From Escherichia coli (GTDB lineage Bacteria > Pseudomonadota > Gammaproteobacteria > Enterobacterales > Enterobacteriaceae), in assembly GCF_001677475.2 (NCBI RefSeq), contig NZ_CP015229.1: a stretch of DNA of 64,000 nt; one strand, 5' to 3'. The notes beneath the pieces are model-generated. The model was not told where the DNA came from, did not search any database, and saw only the letters and a program-made list of their open reading frames with translations. Positions 3,124 to 62,132 of this stretch are shown here, piece by piece. The position numbers were made by a program, and so were the translations under genes. Position 1 is the first letter of the stretch; every line of letters starts with the position of its first letter.

Positions 3124-3160
3124 GCCTGATGCGACGCTTAACGCGTCTTATCAGGCCTAC
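3124..3160. repeat. REP (repetitive extragenic palindrome) unit
   Basis: gcctgatgcgacgcttaacgcgtcttatcaggcctac, a canonical E. coli REP palindrome between convergent gltP and yjcO. Confidence 0.8.
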
Positions 3161-3944: not shown

Positions 3945-6092
3945 TTACGCCAGTGCCGCTTCGCGCAGGCGAGTTTTCAACTTGTTGTACTCGTCAATCA
4001 CGTACTGCTCGGCGGCGCGCTGATCGGCGATCGGCTCGACGCGCACGGCGCAGTATTTGTATTCCGGCGTTTTCGTAATCGGGCTTAAGTTTTCGGTAAC
4101 CAGCTCGTTACAGGCACCAATCCACCACTGGTAGGTCATATAAATCGCCCCTTTGTTCGGACGATCGCTGACCTGCGCACGGGTGATAATTTTGCCTTTA
4201 CGCGAGTGCACCCAAACCAATGCCTCATCTTCAATACCCAGACGTTTGGCGTCTTCGGTATTGATTTGTGCGTAGCCAGGTTCATCAGCCAGCGCCGCCA
4301 GTGCCGCACAGTTACCGGTCATCGAACGGCAAGAGTAGTGACCAACTTCACGCACCGTTGACAGTACCATCGGATACTCGTCGGTGAGTTTGTCGATTGG
4401 CGCTACCCAGTCGCAGGTGAAGAACTGCGCCAGACCGTTCGGGGTATCAAACTTCTCTTTAAACAGATAAGAAGTCCCCTGATCGGCATCTGAAGTATCG
4501 CGGCAAGGCCACTGAATGAAGCCCAGTTCGCCCATTTTCTCGTAAGTCGCACCGTAGAAATCCGGGCACAGATGACGCAACTCATCCCAGATCTCCTGGG
4601 TGTTGTTGTAGTGCATCGGATAACCCATACGGGTGGCGATTTCACTGATGATTTGCCAGTCCGTTTTCAGATCCCATTTCGGTTCAACCGCTTTGAAGAA
4701 ACGCTGGAAGCCACGGTCAGCCGCAGTAAACACGCCTTCATGCTCGCCCCACGACGTTGACGGTAAAATAACATCCGCCGCCGACGCGGTTTTGGTCATA
4801 AAGATGTCCTGAACGATGACCAGTTCCAGATCTTCAAAGGCTTTACGTACTGCCGACAGCTCCGCGTCAGTTTGAAGCGGATCTTCGCCCATAATGTACG
4901 CGGCACGCACTTCACCATGCGCTGCGCGGTGCGGCAGCTCGCTGATGCGATAACCGGTATGAGCAGGCAGGCTTTCCACGCCCCAGGCTTTGGCGAATTT
5001 CTCGCGGTTAGCCGGATCTTTCACGTACTGGTATCCCGGATACGTATCCGGCAGCGCGCCCATATCGCAGGCACCCTGCACGTTGTTCTGACCACGAACC
5101 GGGTTTACACCCGCATGCGGCTTACCGAGGTTACCGGTCAGCATCGCGAGGCTGGTCAGAGAACGCACGGTTTCCACGCCCTGGTAGAACTGGGTTACAC
5201 CCATGCCCCACAGGATGGCGGCGCTTTTCGCCTGGGCATACATCCGTGCCGCCTGACGAATCTCACTGGCGCTGACGCCGGTGATATCTTCAACCGACTC
5301 CGGCGTGTAGCCTTCAACGATTTTACGATACTCTTCAAAGCCTTCTGTACGGGAAGCGACGAAAGCTTTGTCGTACAGGTTTTCTTCAATAATGACATGA
5401 CCCATCGCATTCAACAGCGCGATGTTCGAGCCGTTTTTCAGTGCAATGTGCATGTCAGCAATGCGCGCGGTTTCAATTTTGCGCGGATCGCAGACGATAA
5501 TTTTCGCCCCGTTACGTTTAGCGTTAATTACGTGGTTCGCCACGATTGGGTGGGAATCCGCCGGGTTGTACCCGAAAACGAACACTAAATCGGTATTATC
5601 AATTTCGTTAATAGCATTGCTCATTGCGCCATTACCGACCGATTGGTGCAGACCTGCAACCGATGGGCCGTGTCAGACACGAGCGCAGCAGTCAACGTTA
5701 TTGGTACCAATAACGGCGCGCGCAAATTTTTGCATTACATAGTTGGTTTCGTTACCCGTACCACGCGAGGAGCCGGTCGTCTGGATGGCATCCGGACCGT
5801 ACTTCTCTTTGATGGCGCTCAGGCGCTCGGCAACGTAATTCAGTGCCTCATCCCAGGAAACAGGTTCGAGTTTGCCGCCACGCTGGCGACGGATCATGGG
5901 GGTTTTCAGGCGCGGGGTCAGGATCTGGGTATCGTTAATGAAGTCCCAGCCATAATAACCCTTCAGACACAGGGTACCCTGGTTGGTTTTCCCCTGCGCT
6001 GCCTCCGCCCGGACGATTTTGCCGTTATCGACGACCAGGTTGATTTTGCAACCTGATGCGCAATAGGGGCAAACCGTGACGACTTTTTTCAT
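3945..6092 (-). CDS. fdhF: Formate dehydrogenase H, selenocysteine-containing molybdoenzyme (715 aa); in-frame UGA at 5673-5675 decoded as Sec
   Basis: ORF-track pieces 5673..6092 and 3945..5624 are in the same frame, separated only by TGA; read-through gives ...CCARV-U-HGPSVAGLHQSVGNGAMSNAINEIDNTDLVFVFGYNPADSHP..., the known FdhF sequence around Sec140. Confidence 0.95.
5630..5675 (-). other. Selenocysteine recoding site: UGA plus downstream SECIS hairpin in fdhF mRNA
   Basis: mRNA reads UGA-CACGGCCCAUCGGUUGCAGGUCUGCACCAAUCGGUCGGUAAUGGCG immediately 3' of the UGA, the classic fdhF SelB-binding stem-loop. Confidence 0.85.
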
Positions 6093-13961: not shown

Positions 13962-14291
13962 ATGAAACGCTTTCCGCTATTTCTTTTATTCACCCTGCTC
14001 ACGCTGTCCACCGTTCCGGCCCAGGCCGATATTATCGACGACACCATTGGCAATATTCAGCAGGCGATTAACGACGCTTATAACCCTGACCGTGGGCGAG
14101 ACTATGAAGATTCGCACGACGACGGCTGGCAGCGTGAAGTGAGCGACGATCGGCGCAGACAATATGACGACCGCCGCCGCCAGTTTGAAGATCGCCGCAG
14201 GCAGCTGGACGATCGCCAGCGCCAGCTTGATCAGGAGCGTCGGCAACTGGAGGATGAAGAGCGGAGAATGGAAGATGAGTATGGGCGATGA
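13962..14291 (+). CDS. yjdP: Secreted low-complexity protein YjdP
   Basis: 109-aa ORF, signal peptide MKRFPLFLLFTLLTLSTVPAQA, then repeated DDRRRQ-type charged repeats. Confidence 0.8.
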   Translation: MKRFPLFLLFTLLTLSTVPAQADIIDDTIGNIQQAINDAYNPDRGRDYEDSHDDGWQREVSDDRRRQYDDRRRQFEDRRRQLDDRQRQLDQERRQLEDEERRMEDEYGR

Positions 14292-14332
14292 GGTAGGCTC
14301 GGGTGAGGGGGCCAGCGAGCACATTCTCCCCA

Positions 14333-17884: not shown

Positions 17885-17905
17885 TTTTCGCCTCGTGGTT
17901 CGGGT

Positions 17906-17990
17906 GTCGGATGTGACGCTGACGCGTCTTATCCGACCTACGGGGAGCGCATTTGTCGGCCGGATAAGGCGTTTACGCCGTATCCGGTAC
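17906..17990. repeat. BIME: two inverted REP units between phnK and phnL
   Basis: gtcggatgtgacgctgacgcgtcttatccgacctac and gtcggccggataaggcgtttacgccgtatccggtac, an inverted REP pair inside the operon. Confidence 0.8.
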
Positions 17991-17994
17991 TGGC

Positions 17995-21685: not shown

Positions 21686-22411
21686 TCAGTGCTCCATAGT
21701 GAATTCAATCATGTCGGCGCGCGTCAGGCTGACGGAGTACTCCGCCGGGCTGCTTTCACCGTCACGGTGGTTAAGGGTGCGCACGCACAGCAGCGGCGAC
21801 ATATTCGGGATTTCAAGACGCTGGCACTCTTTGGCCTGGGCGCGGCGGGCGCTGATCCGCGTCTGGCTGCGGCGCAGCGCAATCCCCGTTTGCTCGCGCA
21901 GAAAATCGTGCAGCGAGCCGCTGTCGAAGCGTTGCAGCGTCGGCCAGAGAGTAAGGTCCGCGAAGTAGTGGTCGATTAAACAGAGCGCGACGCCGTTGAC
22001 CCGACGCAGGGTGCGCAGGTGGATGACGTTCTCGCCCTCGGTTATCCCCAGCGCGTCAGCGACGTGACCGGAGGCGGGGCGCAGCACCGACAGCAGTTTT
22101 TCGCTGGTGGGATGGCTGCCCTGGTCCAGCAGGTTCTGGCTAAAACGCGCCTGGGCGTTGAGCGGGTAATCGAACGGGCGCATCAGCACCAGCACGCCGA
22201 CGCCCTGACGGCGTTGTACCCAGCCTTTTTCCACCAGTTGGTCGATGGCGCGGCGCAGGGTGTGGCGATTCACCTCAAAGCGCGCCGCCAGTTGCTGCTC
22301 GGCGGGAAGATAGTCGCCGCAGCGATAGTGTTGACGAAGCTCCTGCTCAAGTTTTGCGGCTATCTCCTGATAGCGTGTTGGGTAGCTGGTCGGATGTGTA
22401 GACAAGTGCAT
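21686..22411 (-). CDS. phnF: GntR-family transcriptional repressor PhnF
   Basis: 241 aa from the ATG at 22411; N-terminal winged-helix HTH and UTRA-like C-terminal domain. Confidence 0.88.
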   Translation of the reverse strand: MHLSTHPTSYPTRYQEIAAKLEQELRQHYRCGDYLPAEQQLAARFEVNRHTLRRAIDQLVEKGWVQRRQGVGVLVLMRPFDYPLNAQARFSQNLLDQGSHPTSEKLLSVLRPASGHVADALGITEGENVIHLRTLRRVNGVALCLIDHYFADLTLWPTLQRFDSGSLHDFLREQTGIALRRSQTRISARRAQAKECQRLEIPNMSPLLCVRTLNHRDGESSPAEYSVSLTRADMIEFTMEH

Positions 22412-22431
22412 AGCTATCAATGCCTCGCTTA

Positions 22432-23211
22432 TCAGATAAAGTGCTTACGCAACCGTTGAGAGAGGAAATCCAGCAGGCTGACCGTGACGATAATCAGCAC
22501 CATCAGGGCGCAGGTTTGCTGGAACTGGAAACCGCGAATCGCTTCCCACAGCGTGACGCCAATTCCGCCTGCGCCGACCATGCCTACGACGGTCGCCGAA
22601 CGGACGTTGGATTCGAAGCGATAGAGAGAATAGGAAATCAGCAGCGGCATCACTTGCGGCAGCACGCCGTAGAGGATCTCTTCGAGCTTGTTGGCACCAG
22701 TGGCGCGAATACCTTCCACCGGGCCGGGTTCAATTGCTTCTACCGCTTCGGAAAGCAGCTTGGAGAGCACGCCGGTGGTGTGGATAAACAGCGCCAGCAC
22801 GCCAGCGAACGGGCCAAGGCCGACGGCGACCACGAACAGCATGGCGAAGACCATTTCGTTAATGGCGCGGCAGGCGTCCATCAGGCGGCGTACGGGCTGG
22901 TAAACCCACCACGGCACCAGGTTTTCGGCGCTCATCAGGCCAAAGGGGATGGAGAGAACCACCGCCAGCGCGGTGCCCCAGACGGCGATTTGCAGCGTGA
23001 CGGCCATTTCGGTGAGGTAATCCTGCCACTGGCTGAAATCGGGCGGGAAGAAGTCGGCGGCGAACGTCGCCATGTTGCCGCCGTCTTTAATCAGCGTGAG
23101 CGGGGCCATTTCCGCGCCCTGCCACGAGACGACCAGCACGGCGAGAACAATGGCCCAGCTCAGAAGCGAGAACCAGCTGCGCTTGGGTGGGGCGATGGTG
23201 ATGGTTTGCAT
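22432..23211 (-). CDS. phnE: Phosphonate ABC transporter permease PhnE; uninterrupted 259-aa frame
   Basis: Single continuous [22 protein letters not shown]... with no frameshift. Confidence 0.9.
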
Positions 23212-23235
23212 ATATTGCTCCGTTTAATGTTTTCT

Positions 23236-23321
23236 CCCTCTCCCTGTGGGAGAGGGCCGGGGTGAGGGCATCAGCGTGCGCATTTCCCCCTCACCCTAAC
23301 CCTCTCCCTCAAGGGAGAGGG
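23236..23321. repeat. GC-rich intergenic repeat: three tandem/nested palindromes (BoxC-like)
   Basis: ccctctccc-tgt-gggagaggg (23236-23256), gggtgaggg...ccctcaccc (23260-23296) and ccctctccc-tcaa-gggagaggg (23300-23321), between phnD and phnE. Confidence 0.6.
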
Positions 23322-23336
23322 GACCGATCGAGCACA

Positions 23337-24353
23337 TTACTGCACCGCTTTACTCACCGAACTCATCGCGCTTAACGCGTTGTTCAGGCGGTCCAGGTCA
23401 TCCAGTTGCGCCTGAATCTCGGTGGTTTTCGCCAGTTTGTCCTGCTCATTCAGCCCTTTATTGCCTTTCACACCCTGCATCTCTTTAAACAGCGCGAGCT
23501 GGCGAATCGGCACCAGTTGCAGGTCGCTGGAGGCGCGGAACGGGGCCCAGCCCAGGCGCTCCAGCACCGCTTTCTCTTCCGGCGTTTTGCCGTAGTTCAT
23601 AAAGAAGTCGTAGATCTTGTCTTTGGTGGTTTCGGAAAGATTTTTGCGCCAGACGATCGGATCGCCTGGGATCAGCGGCGATTTCCAGATCACCTTCAGT
23701 TCTTTGAGCTTCTCCGGTGCGGAGGTTTTCAGCTTGTCGAGGTTTTCGGTGTTGTTGGTCGCCACATCCACTTGTTTGTTGGCGACGGCCAGCGCGTTGG
23801 TTTCATGCCCGGCGTTGACGGTGCGCTTGAAGTCGCTGGCGGAAATATTGTTTTTGGCGAAGACGTAGTAGCCGGGGACGAGGAAGCCAGAGGTGGAGTT
23901 AGGATCGCCATTGCCAAAGGTGAGATCTTTACGCTTCGCCAGCAGATCGTTCAGGTTGTTGATCGGACTGTCTTTGTTGACGATCAACACGCTCCAGTAA
24001 CCCGGCGATCCATCCGCCGCGACCGTCTGGGCGAAGACCTGACCGTTGGCGCGATCCACCGCTTCCATCGCCGACAGATTGCCGTACCAGGCGATATCCA
24101 CTTTGTTGAAGCGCATTCCCTGGATAATGCCCGCGTAGTCCGGGGCAAAGAAGGCGTTGACCTTTACGCCCAGCTTCTTCTCCATATCCTGTAAGAACGG
24201 CGTCCATTGCGGTTTCAGGTTTTGCTGTGATTCCGTTGAAATAATGCCGAAATTCAGCGCCTTTTCCTGCTCTTCGGCGTGCGCCGGGCTTAACAGGGTG
24301 CTGAGGCTGAACATGCTGGTGAAGGCCAGCGAGGCAATTATCTTAGCGTTCAT
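23337..24353 (-). CDS. phnD: Phosphonate ABC transporter periplasmic binding protein PhnD
   Basis: 338-aa ORF with signal peptide ending AHA. Confidence 0.92.
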   Translation of the reverse strand: MNAKIIASLAFTSMFSLSTLLSPAHAEEQEKALNFGIISTESQQNLKPQWTPFLQDMEKKLGVKVNAFFAPDYAGIIQGMRFNKVDIAWYGNLSAMEAVDRANGQVFAQTVAADGSPGYWSVLIVNKDSPINNLNDLLAKRKDLTFGNGDPNSTSGFLVPGYYVFAKNNISASDFKRTVNAGHETNALAVANKQVDVATNNTENLDKLKTSAPEKLKELKVIWKSPLIPGDPIVWRKNLSETTKDKIYDFFMNYGKTPEEKAVLERLGWAPFRASSDLQLVPIRQLALFKEMQGVKGNKGLNEQDKLAKTTEIQAQLDDLDRLNNALSAMSSVSKAVQ

Positions 24354-24377
24354 TCGTTTTCCTCAATGATGGGGATG

Positions 24378-25166
24378 TCAGGCAGCTTTCGCGTTTTCTT
24401 CGACGCGGTTGATGCTGCGGTAGAGATGGTCAAAACGTTCGTTATCAAACTGTTGGCTGCTGCCGTCGTAGAAGACGTGCCCCTGGCGCAGGGCGACGAT
24501 GCGTTCGCAGTAGCGCAGGGCGTAATCCACCTGATGCAGCGTGACGACCACGGTAATGCCGTCGTTCTGGTTAATGTCGCGCAGGGTGTCCATCACGATG
24601 CGCGCCGATTCCGGGTCCAGCGAGGCGATGGGTTCATCGGCCAGAATTACCTTCGCCTGCTGCATCAGCGCGCGGGCAATCGCCACACGCTGCTGTTGCC
24701 CGCCGGAGAGGGTGGAAACGCGCTGATGGGCAAAATGCACCATGCCAACGCGGGTCAGCGCCTGTAACGCGCGCTGTTTCTGCTCGCGGGTGAACCAGCT
24801 AAAACAGGTGCGCCAGAATGGCGTGCTGCCGAGCGCGCCAATCAGCACGTTCTCCAGTACGCTCAGGCGATTCACCAGGTTGAATTGTTGGAAGATGTAG
24901 CCGGTGTTGGCGCGGCTTTTGCGGATATCGCGGGCCAGGCGGCCTTCGCGCTGGACTGTGCGGCCCAGCAGCTCGATATGGCTACCGGCAGATTTATCGC
25001 CGGTAATCAAACCGCTTAAGTGACGTAAAAGGGTGGATTTGCCGGAACCCGACGGCCCAAGCAGAGCCACCATTTCACCGTGATGAATGTTCAGATCAAC
25101 CGCGTGCAGCGCCTGATGCTGATTGAAGGTTTTGGCGAGCTTCTCGACACGGATAATCGTTTGCAT
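24378..25166 (-). CDS. phnC: Phosphonate ABC transporter ATP-binding protein PhnC
   Basis: 262-aa ORF, Walker [13 protein letters not shown] signature LSGGQQQR; good GGGAGG ribosome-binding site. Confidence 0.93.
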
Positions 25167-25742: not shown

Positions 25743-25807
25743 GATGGTGACCTCAGTTAAGAGAAGCCAGTTAAGTGTAGTTCGAAATTTATACAGATGA
25801 GAGGGAA

Positions 25808-25883
25808 GCCTGATAAGACGCGGTCAGCGTCGCATCAGGCTGTCGGCATCGTTGCCGGATGCGGCGCGAGCGCCTTATCCGGC
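25808..25883. repeat. BIME: two inverted REP units between yjdN and yjdM
   Basis: gcctgataagacgcggtcagcgtcgcatcaggc and gccggatgcggcgcgagcgccttatccggc. Confidence 0.8.
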
Positions 25884-25901
25884 TTACCGATCACAATACA
25901 A

Positions 25902-31518: not shown

Positions 31519-31547
31519 GGCCTGATGTGACGCTGTCTTATCAGGCC
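31519..31547. repeat. REP-like palindrome / proP terminator
   Basis: ggcctgatgtgacgctgtcttatcaggcc immediately downstream of the proP stop. Confidence 0.7.
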
Positions 31548-31559
31548 AACAATTGAACT

Positions 31560-31576
31560 CTTAAGGTTCACTTAAT
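31560..31576 (+). promoter_or_regulatory. PmrA (BasR) box upstream of pmrR
   Basis: CTTAAG-gttca-CTTAAT, an exact YTTAAK-N5-YTTAAK direct repeat 45-60 bp upstream of the pmrR ATG. Confidence 0.65.
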
Positions 31577-31620
31577 CTCTGACGCGCATACTCTCCTCCA
31601 GGTTAACGGAGGAGAGTGCA

Positions 31621-31710
31621 ATGAAAAACCGTGTTTATGAAAGTTTAACTACCGTGTTCAGCGTGCTGGTGGTCAGCAGCTTTCTTTATATCTGGTTTGC
31701 CACGTTCTGA
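31621..31710 (+). CDS. pmrR: Small membrane protein PmrR (29 aa); below the ORF-track cutoff
   Basis: atg aaa aac cgt ... ttc tga translates to MKNRVYESLTTVFSVLVVSSFLYIWFATF, a single TM helix; GGAGG Shine-Dalgarno; 3' end overlaps the convergent basS by 25 bp. Confidence 0.75.
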   Translation: MKNRVYESLTTVFSVLVVSSFLYIWFATF

Positions 31711-32786
31711 TCTTTCTTCAGCCGTACCCAGGCCCGCGTGCCGGAAGTCTCTTGCCGGTTCTGCAGGAAAAACTGCCCGTGATGCAACTGTGTAATGCGG
31801 CTGACAATACTTAACCCCAGACCAATCCCGCCATAACGGCTGTCCATACGTACAAACGCTTTACTCAACTCCCCGCATTTACTCTCATCAATACCCGGTC
31901 CTTCATCTTCAACGGCCATTACCGCTCCGCCATCTTCTTGCAGCTTAATCATAATGTTGCTGCCTTGCGGGCTGTAACGATGGGCGTTTTCTACCAGGTT
32001 TCGCAATAACATCCGCAGCAGGGTTGCGTCACCCTGAACGGTGATGTCGGCGGCGCTCTCTGGCAATAGCAGGGTTTGCTGGCGCTGGTCGAGCATGGTA
32101 CTGAGTTCGTCATACGAGGGGAGAATGACCTCTTCCAGCAGTTTTACATGTTGATAATTACCGGAAGAAAATGACTGTCCGGCGCGCGCCAGTTGTAACA
32201 GCTGGGAGACGCTCTCCATCATCTGATCAAGCCGTGCCACTAACGGTGCTACATCAATGTGATGCGTTTTCGCCAGCAGTTCCAGATGCAAACGCACCCC
32301 CGCCAGTGGCGTTCGCAGTTCGTGCGCGACGTCAGCGGTAAACAACCTTTCGTTATCCAGCGTGTTGGTCAGGCGACTGACCAGATCGTTTAACGCCGAA
32401 ACCACCGCTTCGATTTCGAGGGTGGCGCTGTGAATGGCAATGGGCGTTAAGTTGTCGGCGGTGCGCGCTTCCAGCTCTTTTTGCAGCTCCGCCAGCGGGC
32501 GGGTGATGCGATGCACCGCCTGATAGCAGATAAATAGCGTCAGGCTGACCATAAAGACGCCGGGGACAATCAGGCTGGCGACCGCCTCGCGGATCTCGCG
32601 CATAATGTGGCGATCGTTGTTGCGATTGTCGCGTAGCGCCTGCTCAAACAGCTGAATCTGCTCGGTACTTTCATGCCATAGCCAGAAGACGCTGATCAAC
32701 TCAAACACCAACAAAATGGCCCCGATGGTCAATATCAGCCGTTGGCGCAGCGATATTGGTCGGCGCAGAAAACGCATCAAATTCAA
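31686..32786 (-). CDS. basS: Two-component sensor histidine kinase BasS (PmrB)
   Basis: 366-aa ORF with two TM segments, HAMP, H-box (ADVAHELRTPL) and ATPase domain; exact start codon uncertain. Confidence 0.88.
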   Translation of the reverse strand: MNLMRFLRRPISLRQRLILTIGAILLVFELISVFWLWHESTEQIQLFEQALRDNRNNDRHIMREIREAVASLIVPGVFMVSLTLFICYQAVHRITRPLAELQKELEARTADNLTPIAIHSATLEIEAVVSALNDLVSRLTNTLDNERLFTADVAHELRTPLAGVRLHLELLAKTHHIDVAPLVARLDQMMESVSQLLQLARAGQSFSSGNYQHVKLLEEVILPSYDELSTMLDQRQQTLLLPESAADITVQGDATLLRMLLRNLVENAHRYSPQGSNIMIKLQEDGGAVMAVEDEGPGIDESKCGELSKAFVRMDSRYGGIGLGLSIVSRITQLHHGQFFLQNRQETSGTRAWVRLKKDQNVANQI

Positions 32787-44318: not shown

Positions 44319-44416
44319 GGCCTGATGCGATATGTTTATCAGGCCACGTTTTAATACAATGCTTTGGATTTGCAAATTTTGTAGACCGGATAAGGAATTC
44401 ACGCCGCATCCGGCAT
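44319..44416. repeat. BIME: two REP units downstream of melB
   Basis: ggcctgatgcgatatgtttatcaggcc and gaccggataaggaattcacgccgcatccggc. Confidence 0.75.
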
Positions 44417-62056: not shown

Positions 62057-62132
62057 TGGTGCCCGGACTCGGAATCGAACCAAGGACACGGGGATTTTCA
62101 ATCCCCTGCTCTACCGACTGAGCTATCCGGGC
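62057..62132 (-). tRNA. pheU: tRNA-Phe (anticodon GAA)
   Basis: Reverse complement GCCCGGATAGCTCAGTCGGTAGAGCAGGGGATTGAAAATCCCCGTGTCCTTGGTTCGATTCCGAGTCCGGGCACCA: 76 nt, anticodon loop ATTGAAAAT, TPsiC GGTTCGATTCC, encoded CCA. Confidence 0.97.

Follow-up and report, generated by a model that had tools for sequence, protein, structure and literature searches.

What is the GC-rich palindromic sequence that separates phnD from phnE in this stretch of Escherichia coli DNA, and does it serve the operon that carries it? The window (the whole 64-kb stretch that was analyzed) is collinear gene for gene with E. coli strain 7/2 at about 98% identity (6.1-kb stretch). The genes of interest lie on the minus strand, where phnF to phnP follow phnE in the phn operon, a 14-gene phnC-phnP locus according to the portion of PMC3734233 that cites Metcalf & Wanner 1993. 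Along this operon in K-12, phn mRNA coverage varies and falls (PMC3734233). A preliminary description of the window put the gap between phnE and phnD at 125 bp and its palindromes inside a polycistronic operon; the gap is exactly 23212-23336, in agreement with the RefSeq annotation of strain 7/2, and the element is indeed contained within phnC-P.

24378-25166, minus strand: phnC
23337-24353, minus strand: phnD, the gene for the periplasmic phosphonate-binding protein and the upstream cistron (stop codon 23337-23339)
23212-23336: phnD-phnE spacer, 125 bp
23212-23228, minus strand: non-repeat remainder of the spacer, 17 nt, the phnE ribosome-binding region (GGAG at 23218-23221)
22432-23211, minus strand: phnE, the permease gene and the downstream cistron, intact, 259 aa (ATG 23209-23211)

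A CGGAGC motif near the phnE ribosome-binding site is kept in the spacers of all species compared.

Identity and extent of the repeat

Six 9-nt blocks, consisting of CCCTCTCCC, GGGAGAGGG and GGGTGAGGG and their complements, account for the three tandem or nested palindromes previously noticed at 23236-23321. The corresponding motif GGGWGAGGG occurs seven times in the 64-kb window against an expectation of 0.45, and six of the seven occurrences are within the phnD-phnE spacer. The components are arranged as follows:

23229-23336, 108 bp: complete BoxC composite (gttttct, type B, central loop, inverted type A, gaccgatcgagcaca)
23236-23269, plus strand: BoxC/TM_ECO type B motif, CCCTCTCCC-TGT-GGGAGAGGG-CCG-GGGTGAGGG-C, equal to TM_ECO no. 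1
23270-23286: central loop between the inverted motifs, atcagcgtgcgcatttc
23287-23321, minus strand: BoxC/TM_ECO type A motif, CCCTCTCCC-TTGA-GGGAGAGGG-TTA-GGGTGAGGG-G, equal to TM_ECO no. 2 save for the last base
23236-44: 9-nt block CCCTCTCCC
23248-56: 9-nt block GGGAGAGGG
23260-68: 9-nt block GGGTGAGGG
23288-96: 9-nt block CCCTCACCC
23300-08: 9-nt block CCCTCTCCC
23313-21: 9-nt block GGGAGAGGG

Judged by its sequence, the phnD-phnE element is almost certainly an inverted pair of BoxC repeats (also called PIT, TM_ECO, or HPG1/HPG2), one of type B and one of type A. The family is said to have been published by Bergler in 1992 and by Hoyne et al. in 2000. According to Holder et al. 2015 (PMC4666352), TM_ECO is the element that received the name BoxC in the 1990s and was later found again by Hoyne and Maher, who called it PIT. 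HPG1 and HPG2, described by Kaplan et al. 2016 (PMC5100583) as G-quadruplex/hairpin motifs, are the two cores of the repeat. The stretch at 23236-23269 reproduces TM_ECO no. 1 exactly (type B, CCCTCTCCCTGTGGGAGAGGGCCGGGGTGAGGGC; Table 1, PMC4666352), and the type A motif matches HPG1 (GGGAGAGGGTTAGGGTGAGGG, PMC5100583) on the mRNA strand. Both motifs have the three-block layout of the family (C-G-G), that is, CCCTC(T/G)CCC(C), a loop, GGG(G)AGAGGG, a TTA loop in type A or a CCG loop in type B, and GGGTGAGGG. They lie 17 nt apart on opposite strands (plus for type B, minus for type A); in palindromic TM_ECO sites, the partner of a type A motif is always an inverted type B (PMC4666352). BoxC in this palindromic arrangement is an already known repeat and no new kind of feature.

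The MG1655 genome contains 23 TM_ECO motifs, of which nos. 1 and 2 together form the K-12 copy between hrpB and mrcB (PMC4666352). Compared with this copy in the K-12 lineage (L003 1492-1604), the window element has identical arms and identical flanks on both sides, and only the central loop differs; the comparison also gives 94.7% identity over 94 nt. Because the identity spans from gttttct to gaccgatcgagcaca, the unit is taken to be 108 bp (23229-23336), with conserved flanks that extend it beyond the usually quoted 34-37-nt motif. Its right end adjoins the phnD stop codon, and between its left end and phnE remain 17 nt, which include the phnE ribosome-binding site. The interval 23236-23321 in the preliminary description delimits the blocks correctly and is too short for the repeat.

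Like other members of the family, the element is intergenic, dispersed, and chromosomal, and in other strains its pair is reduced to a single hairpin. A genome search, as had been proposed, finds copies elsewhere: of 5,426 complete E. coli genomes, 5,268 contain BoxC by blastn, with 48,030 places in total (median about 10 per genome), 47,991 of them chromosomal versus 39 on plasmids. The phnD-phnE copy is absent from BoxC lists compiled from K-12, in which the spacer (MG1655) instead holds a REP pair and no BoxC. The words "phnD" and "phnE" do not occur in the main text of PMC4666352, a study that covers 62 TM_ECO loci, or in the accessible part of its supplement text. The gathering-threshold Rfam scan of the whole window has no match at the spacer, and an E-value scan of 22000-25000 returns sub-threshold eukaryotic miRNA hairpin models only (≤28 bits versus thresholds of 55-168). 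These miRNA-precursor models are discarded as a generic long-hairpin artifact.

REP-type units are found elsewhere in the window (about 3124-3156, 17959, 25808-25883, 31520-31546, and 44320-44415), and the unit at 25808-25883 is also a match to Rfam naRNA4, which is REP-derived. No REP words occur in 23212-23336, and the imperfect palindrome of the REP core (GCC[G/T]GATG...CTTATCCGGCCTAC type) is absent there. The element differs from the REP/BIME units of the window, as first described, and the sequences are unrelated. Both kinds of repeat are dispersed GC-rich palindromes that lie after binding-protein genes in ABC-transporter operons (for REP, the malE-malF and hisJ-hisQ intercistronic copies), and the mode of action proposed below for the spacer BoxC, a barrier to 3' exonucleases, is the same as for REP. 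In contrast to REP, BoxC lacks the GCCGGATG/CTTATCCGGCCTAC core, and stabilizing activity is demonstrated for REP and not for BoxC. To our knowledge, BoxC has no RAYT-type mobilizing enzyme.

Folding of the transcript and alleles in E. coli

The spacer folds far more stably on the mRNA (minus) strand than its composition predicts (minimum free energy [MFE] -72.8 kcal/mol versus a shuffle mean of -44.2, z -7.3), and none of 200 dinucleotide shuffles matches its MFE. When the base-pair span is limited, three tandem hairpins form with a combined energy of -57.6 kcal/mol; without this limit, the prediction is one long nested hairpin of -72.8 kcal/mol. The tandem and the nested form suggested initially both hold. 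An RNA G-quadruplex is assigned -12.6 kcal/mol by ViennaRNA versus -72.8 for the hairpin. The local hairpins of the mRNA are the following:

23300-23322, minus strand: hairpin 1, nearest phnD, CCCCUCUCCCUUGAGGGAGAGGG, -17.9 kcal/mol
23259-23296, minus strand: hairpin 2, GGGUGAGGG...CCCUCACCC with a 19-nt loop, -20.7 kcal/mol
23236-23256, minus strand: hairpin 3, nearest phnE, CCCUCUCCCACAGGGAGAGGG, -16.8 kcal/mol

The main stem starts 13 nt past the phnD UAA. In the MFE fold, a weak outer 5-bp helix, UGCUC/GAGCA, pairs with the GAGCA of the phnE ribosome-binding region.

The distribution of spacer alleles in 5,426 complete E. coli genomes was obtained with junction-anchored queries. The bare 125-nt spacer as query gives 3,420 genomes, an inflated count, since over 80% of that query is also matched by the hrpB-mrcB paralog. 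The anchored counts are:

REP pair (K-12 type, including a truncated 89-bp form): 3,744 genomes, 69%
BoxC in the window orientation, any allele: 1,338 genomes
BoxC full pair: about 348 genomes, about 6%
BoxC collapsed to a single hairpin: about 990 genomes
64-bp spacer with a single "A mm"-type BoxC hairpin, inverted together with its flanks: 284 genomes

The window carries a minority allele, present in about 6% of genomes. Including the 89-bp truncated REP, the junction has at least seven spacer alleles in E. coli, and a hairpin is kept in each allele class sampled. Three of the alleles are related to the full BoxC pair by deletion:

60 bp: between direct GGGAGAGGG repeats at 23248 and 23313
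61 bp: between CCCTCTCCC repeats at 23236 and 23300
67 bp: between CCCT at 23236 and 23294

The breakpoints fall exactly at internal direct repeats, and the locus is variable in the manner known for BoxC; each of the three deletion alleles retains one perfect hairpin (representative sequences). A "palindrome effect" is described for TM_ECO pairs (PMC4666352), as in these slippage deletions. Read from the allele sequences, the palindrome appears unstable as DNA: deletions between the 9-nt direct repeats that it contains collapse it, and what remains is in every case a single hairpin. In about 1,270 E. coli genomes and in several species, the third block, with its triplex and G-quadruplex potential, is lost and the two-block hairpin is retained. 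Sequenced E. coli strains form a ready-made series of alleles at the locus: the full BoxC pair, its three collapsed forms, the inverted single hairpin, and the REP pair with its truncated version. Related species add a state that lacks a hairpin. Such a series is suited to testing whether BoxC is equivalent to REP as a barrier to mRNA decay, and whether selection or the mechanics of palindrome decay accounts for the upkeep of the hairpin.

The junction in other species

A scan for PhnD in species-representative genomes yields 80 loci, mostly from Enterobacteriaceae, and 77 of their phnD-phnE spacers were classified and folded. A strong palindrome is present in 75 of the 77 (41 BoxC, 25 REP, and 9 other), all at ≤ -19 kcal/mol. 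The BoxC spacers contain single, paired, or tandemly duplicated repeats or internal tandem arrays, in both orientations relative to the genes, and the REP-type spacers are mostly from Citrobacter and Salmonella arizonae. Nine of the 11 "other" spacers have a strong hairpin; in five of the nine this is a simple non-repeat hairpin (three Atlantibacter loci, Enterobacillus, and Enterobacteriaceae bacterium B14), and the rest are REP-like. The remaining two spacers, from two species (L082 and L083), are 22-23 nt long and have no hairpin; the hairpin-less spacer of 22 nt is that of Enterobacteriaceae bacterium LSJC7. Outside the 77, the raw spacers of two Vibrio loci contain simple hairpins. The first paired base of the hairpins in other species has a median index of 2-5 from the stop codon. 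The two adjacent junctions of the same operon serve as controls:

phnC-phnD: median 24 nt, median MFE -2.0, 6 of 78 at ≤ -15 kcal/mol
phnE-phnF: median 20 nt, median MFE -2.5, 4 of 73 at ≤ -15 kcal/mol

Hairpin occupancy is 97% at phnD-phnE versus 5-8% at these two junctions. A strong stem-loop after the binding-protein gene is near-universal and junction-specific, whereas the sequence family that supplies it, the number of copies, and the orientation vary.

Inverted with respect to the window element, the copy in Lelliottia matches it at 97% identity over 99 nt, in the midst of genes that are 81% identical. This disparity argues for recent spread or homogenization of BoxC rather than vertical inheritance, and identity of 97% between E. 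coli and Lelliottia in opposite orientations would imply a mechanism that moves or homogenizes BoxC between loci and genera. At the Pseudocitrobacter faecalis locus, nucleotide identity to the window is 91-95% and the spacer is 251 bp long. BoxC resembles MITE- or REPIN-like mobile palindromes in being a composite of about 100 bp made of two inverted units, with copies that stay near-identical across unrelated loci and across genera and that occur in either orientation at one site. It differs from them in having no recognizable target-site duplication (none that is convincing was found at the element ends), and its mobility is something that we only infer. We know of no cognate transposase for BoxC.

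Candidate roles of the hairpin

Stabilization of the upstream phnCD message, one of the effects that had been proposed for the spacer, is plausible and has comparative support. The element would be transcribed within the Pho-regulated phnC-P message, where it would fold, as three hairpins or a single long one, into a stem-loop of great stability directly 3' of the binding-protein cistron. After an endonucleolytic cut downstream, this structure would stop 3'-to-5' exonucleases, so that the phnC-phnD segment would outlast phnE and the later genes and the binding protein would be made in excess of the permease, like the effect of the REP hairpins between malE and malF. BoxC, REP, and unique hairpins would be interchangeable at the junction, with the hairpin kept rather than the sequence, the orientation, or the triplex and G-quadruplex potential. 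As in malE-malF, a stable stem-loop lies 3' of a binding-protein cistron within an operon and is conserved at the same junction in relatives. The substrate-binding-protein cistrons of ABC operons are typically the ones stabilized by 3' structures, and where such operons undergo differential decay the stabilized cistron invariably encodes the substrate-binding subunit; for malE, the protection comes from an intergenic 3' structure that 3'-5' exonucleases are unable to pass (PMC5927463). Conservation of structure without conservation of sequence favors a protective 3' hairpin of the malE-malF kind. Since the third block is often lost and both orientations occur, the hairpin is favored over a triplex or G-quadruplex as the relevant property.

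The proposed arrangement resembles the cases of Dar & Sorek 2018 (PMC5927463) in that a stable structure lies 3' of the cistron whose product is required in larger amount (in phn, the substrate-binding subunit) and is conserved across Enterobacteriaceae. Unlike those structures, which are mostly located in the downstream coding sequence and conserved in sequence, the phn structure is intergenic and derived from interchangeable repeats; the phn operon is not among the cases of that study (PMC5927463). That the BoxC hairpin shields the phnC-phnD segment from decay, in the role of the K-12 REP pair, has by comparison with these systems a probability slightly short of even. The joint statement that the element is BoxC and that it works by mRNA protection may equally be right or wrong. 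The part of PMC4666352 that reports Hoyne & Maher 2002 does not list protection from mRNA decay among the activities of PIT/BoxC.

Several observations are counterpoints to protection. The species L082 and L083 manage with their hairpin-free spacers. Persistence of the hairpin may partly be a ratchet, in which slippage within a palindrome leaves a hairpin by construction, and phnD-phnE may simply be the junction that tolerates insertions. Elsewhere in the genome, BoxC copies show no preference for particular positions with respect to genes (PMC4666352).

If these repeats have no effect on expression, BoxC could be a neutral or selfish passenger that, like REP, accumulates at the one tolerant phn junction and persists there because palindromes are not cleanly excised. 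This is a serious reading, held to be improbable by a fair measure, and it would account for the high turnover of spacer alleles, the two orientations, the Lelliottia element that is more similar than its flanks, the deletion breakpoints at internal repeats, the short empty spacer of two species, and a literature without functional bias for the family (PMC4666352). It sits poorly with the unique non-repeat hairpins of Atlantibacter, Enterobacillus, Enterobacteriaceae bacterium B14, and Vibrio, with the occupancy contrast between this junction and its two neighbors, and with the stems of the collapsed alleles, which are still perfect. A role confined to DNA, in which a non-B-DNA site (triplex, G-quadruplex, or cruciform) stalls replication and makes the locus unstable with no part for RNA, is unlikely. 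The purine-motif triplex (PMC4666352) and the G-quadruplex (PMC5100583) are seen in vitro with consensus oligonucleotides; an isolated TM_ECO strand forms a stable triplex and TM_ECO loci vary more than intergenic control sites do, but the triplex signal is absent in duplex DNA and in in vivo DMS footprinting (PMC4666352). The three slippage deletions described here are instances of the palindrome effect, and the yjdP-phnP copy of K-12 is mostly deleted in the window. Instability, however, is a property that does not account for near-universal retention of the hairpin, and alleles without the third block are common. An effect at the DNA level is compatible with, and not exclusive of, protection of the mRNA.

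Translational control, in which the stem would stall ribosomes terminating at phnD and lower PhnD synthesis, or the UGCUC/GAGCA helix would mask part of the phnE Shine-Dalgarno sequence, is decidedly improbable. The distance of 13 nt from the UAA and the pairing of the outer helix with GAGCA of the ribosome-binding region are in its favor, as are the hairpins of other species, which likewise start no more than a few nucleotides from the stop codon; REPs less than 15 nt from a stop codon are reported by Liang, Rudd & Deutscher in 2015 to lower translation of the upstream gene via trans-translation. Yet less binding protein contradicts the usual stoichiometry of ABC importers, and the outer helix, which is unconserved in other species, is built from the family's own flank TGTGCTCG. 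Because this flank is shared with the hrpB-mrcB copy, the pairing with the ribosome-binding region is probably coincidental. Least probable is an attenuator, in which the RNA structure, or a G-quadruplex or triplex in the template, would pause or end RNA polymerase and reduce phnE-P transcripts. Some BIMEs reportedly attenuate transcription (Espeli et al. in 2001 are said to have found this), and the GC-rich stem-loop of the transcript is a feature in common with Rho-independent terminators and attenuators. A terminator role has also been suggested for HPG motifs inside operons (Kaplan et al., PMC5100583). BoxC differs from such terminators in having neither a 3' U-tract nor a reported terminator activity: the hairpin is followed by AGAAAACAUUAAACGGAG with no U-run (3' tail AGAAAACAUUAAAC), and a promoter and terminator scan of the spacer finds no terminator-like site. 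According to the portion of PMC4666352 that summarizes Hoyne & Maher 2002, PIT/BoxC has no promoter or terminator activity and leaves RNA polymerase unaffected. Twelve genes, phnE to phnP, lie downstream of the element, and phosphate-starved K-12 transcribes phnC-P at full length (PMC3734233). Attenuation is unsupported on the grounds of the missing U-tract and the published tests; of the earlier interpretation, the view of a non-REP element inside an operon and belonging to a dispersed repeat family stands, and attenuation does not.

Returning to protection of the phnCD message, the comparative data tentatively suggest, at somewhat less than an even probability, that the phnD/phnE junction is under selection to keep a strong RNA hairpin (among the sampled Enterobacteriaceae and at the two Vibrio loci), and that BoxC copies of either orientation have been recruited, interchangeably with REP and unique hairpins, as a decay barrier that sets the PhnD:PhnE ratio. 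We know of no function found for BoxC in 30 years, and selection for the hairpin, if true, would give this family, an orphan since 1992, its first physiological role.

The BoxC copy located between yjdP and phnP in K-12 has left a recognizable remnant in the window. An occurrence of GGGTGAGGG at 14301, considered as a second copy of the repeat, is merely the last block and flank of that mostly deleted copy.

Allelic forms of BoxC in the phn region of E. coli

The phnD-phnE spacer exists in several forms within E. coli. In K-12 MG1655 (locus L001, 2733-2836), a REP pair stands in place of the BoxC pair carried by the window. The K-12 phnE1 pseudogene, which is 839 nt long in the RefSeq annotation, has its start within this REP-containing spacer; the phnE of the window is an intact open reading frame of 259 aa. 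In another allele, found in 284 genomes and represented by E. coli ampC_0069 (L006, 121-184), the spacer has just one BoxC hairpin, which belongs to the “A mm” subtype (CCCTCGCCCC/GGGGAGAGGG) and lies in the opposite orientation. The flanks of this hairpin (TGTGCTCGATCGGT, AGAAAAC) are likewise inverted. The joint inversion of hairpin and flanks indicates that the allele arose by inversion of the whole element, or else by a separate insertion at the same site.

Strain variation also affects a second BoxC locus, the yjdP-phnP intergenic region (window 14290-14325, compared with L010 120-235 of K-12). The K-12 region includes a complete BoxC type A motif and the remnant of a second hairpin (TM_ECO no. 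22). In the window, just the final block (GGGTGAGGGG) and flank (GCCAGCGAGCACA) of the element are left. The difference is a further strain-specific deletion within a BoxC element, located in the same 64 kb as the phnD-phnE copy.

Orientation and tandem growth of BoxC in other genera

A BoxC composite in a Lelliottia species (L033, 2217-2315) is 97% identical to window positions 23226-23324, and the genes flanking it have 81% identity to the window. Compared with the E. coli copy, this composite is inverted relative to phnD and phnE. To our knowledge, no mobilising enzyme has been described for the BoxC family.

Other spacers are longer. In “Pseudocitrobacter faecalis” DSM 27453 (L011, 2215-2465), the phnD-phnE spacer measures 251 bp and includes the entire BoxC pair twice, in tandem. 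This locus has 91-95% DNA identity to the window, which is unexpectedly close for a different genus; none of the 80 loci from the genome scan is from an Escherichia genome. Spacers of 200-280 bp, beginning after position 2214, are found in Pseudenterobacter timonensis (L034), Leclercia adecarboxylata (L049), Buttiauxella izardii (L079), and locus L086. Here three to four tandem repeats, either of a ~45-nt unit or of the hairpin unit, separate the two BoxC arms or extend them. BoxC composites can thus enlarge through internal tandem duplication.

Related repeats and other elements

Another Pho-regulon ABC-transporter operon, pstSCAB-phoU, also has BoxC inside the operon: published tables place a BoxC motif in the pstA-pstB intergenic region of K-12 MG1655 (3908495-3908530; PMC4666352, PMC5100583). 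The pst motif lies at the permease-ATPase junction, whereas the phn element directly follows the binding-protein gene.

Among the intergenic regions of the window with REP sequences are:
17885-17994, phnK-phnL spacer (110 nt), a second sizeable intercistronic gap of the phn operon, with the REP word GCCGGATAAG at 17959
25807-25884, yjdN-yjdM intergenic region, with two REP pairs that match Rfam naRNA4 (CssrE; 85.5 bits, threshold 59.5)

Further Rfam matches in the window are routine:
5626-5680, SECIS element of fdhF
31552-31717, sRNA STnc630, overlapping pmrR downstream of proP
62060-62132, tRNA
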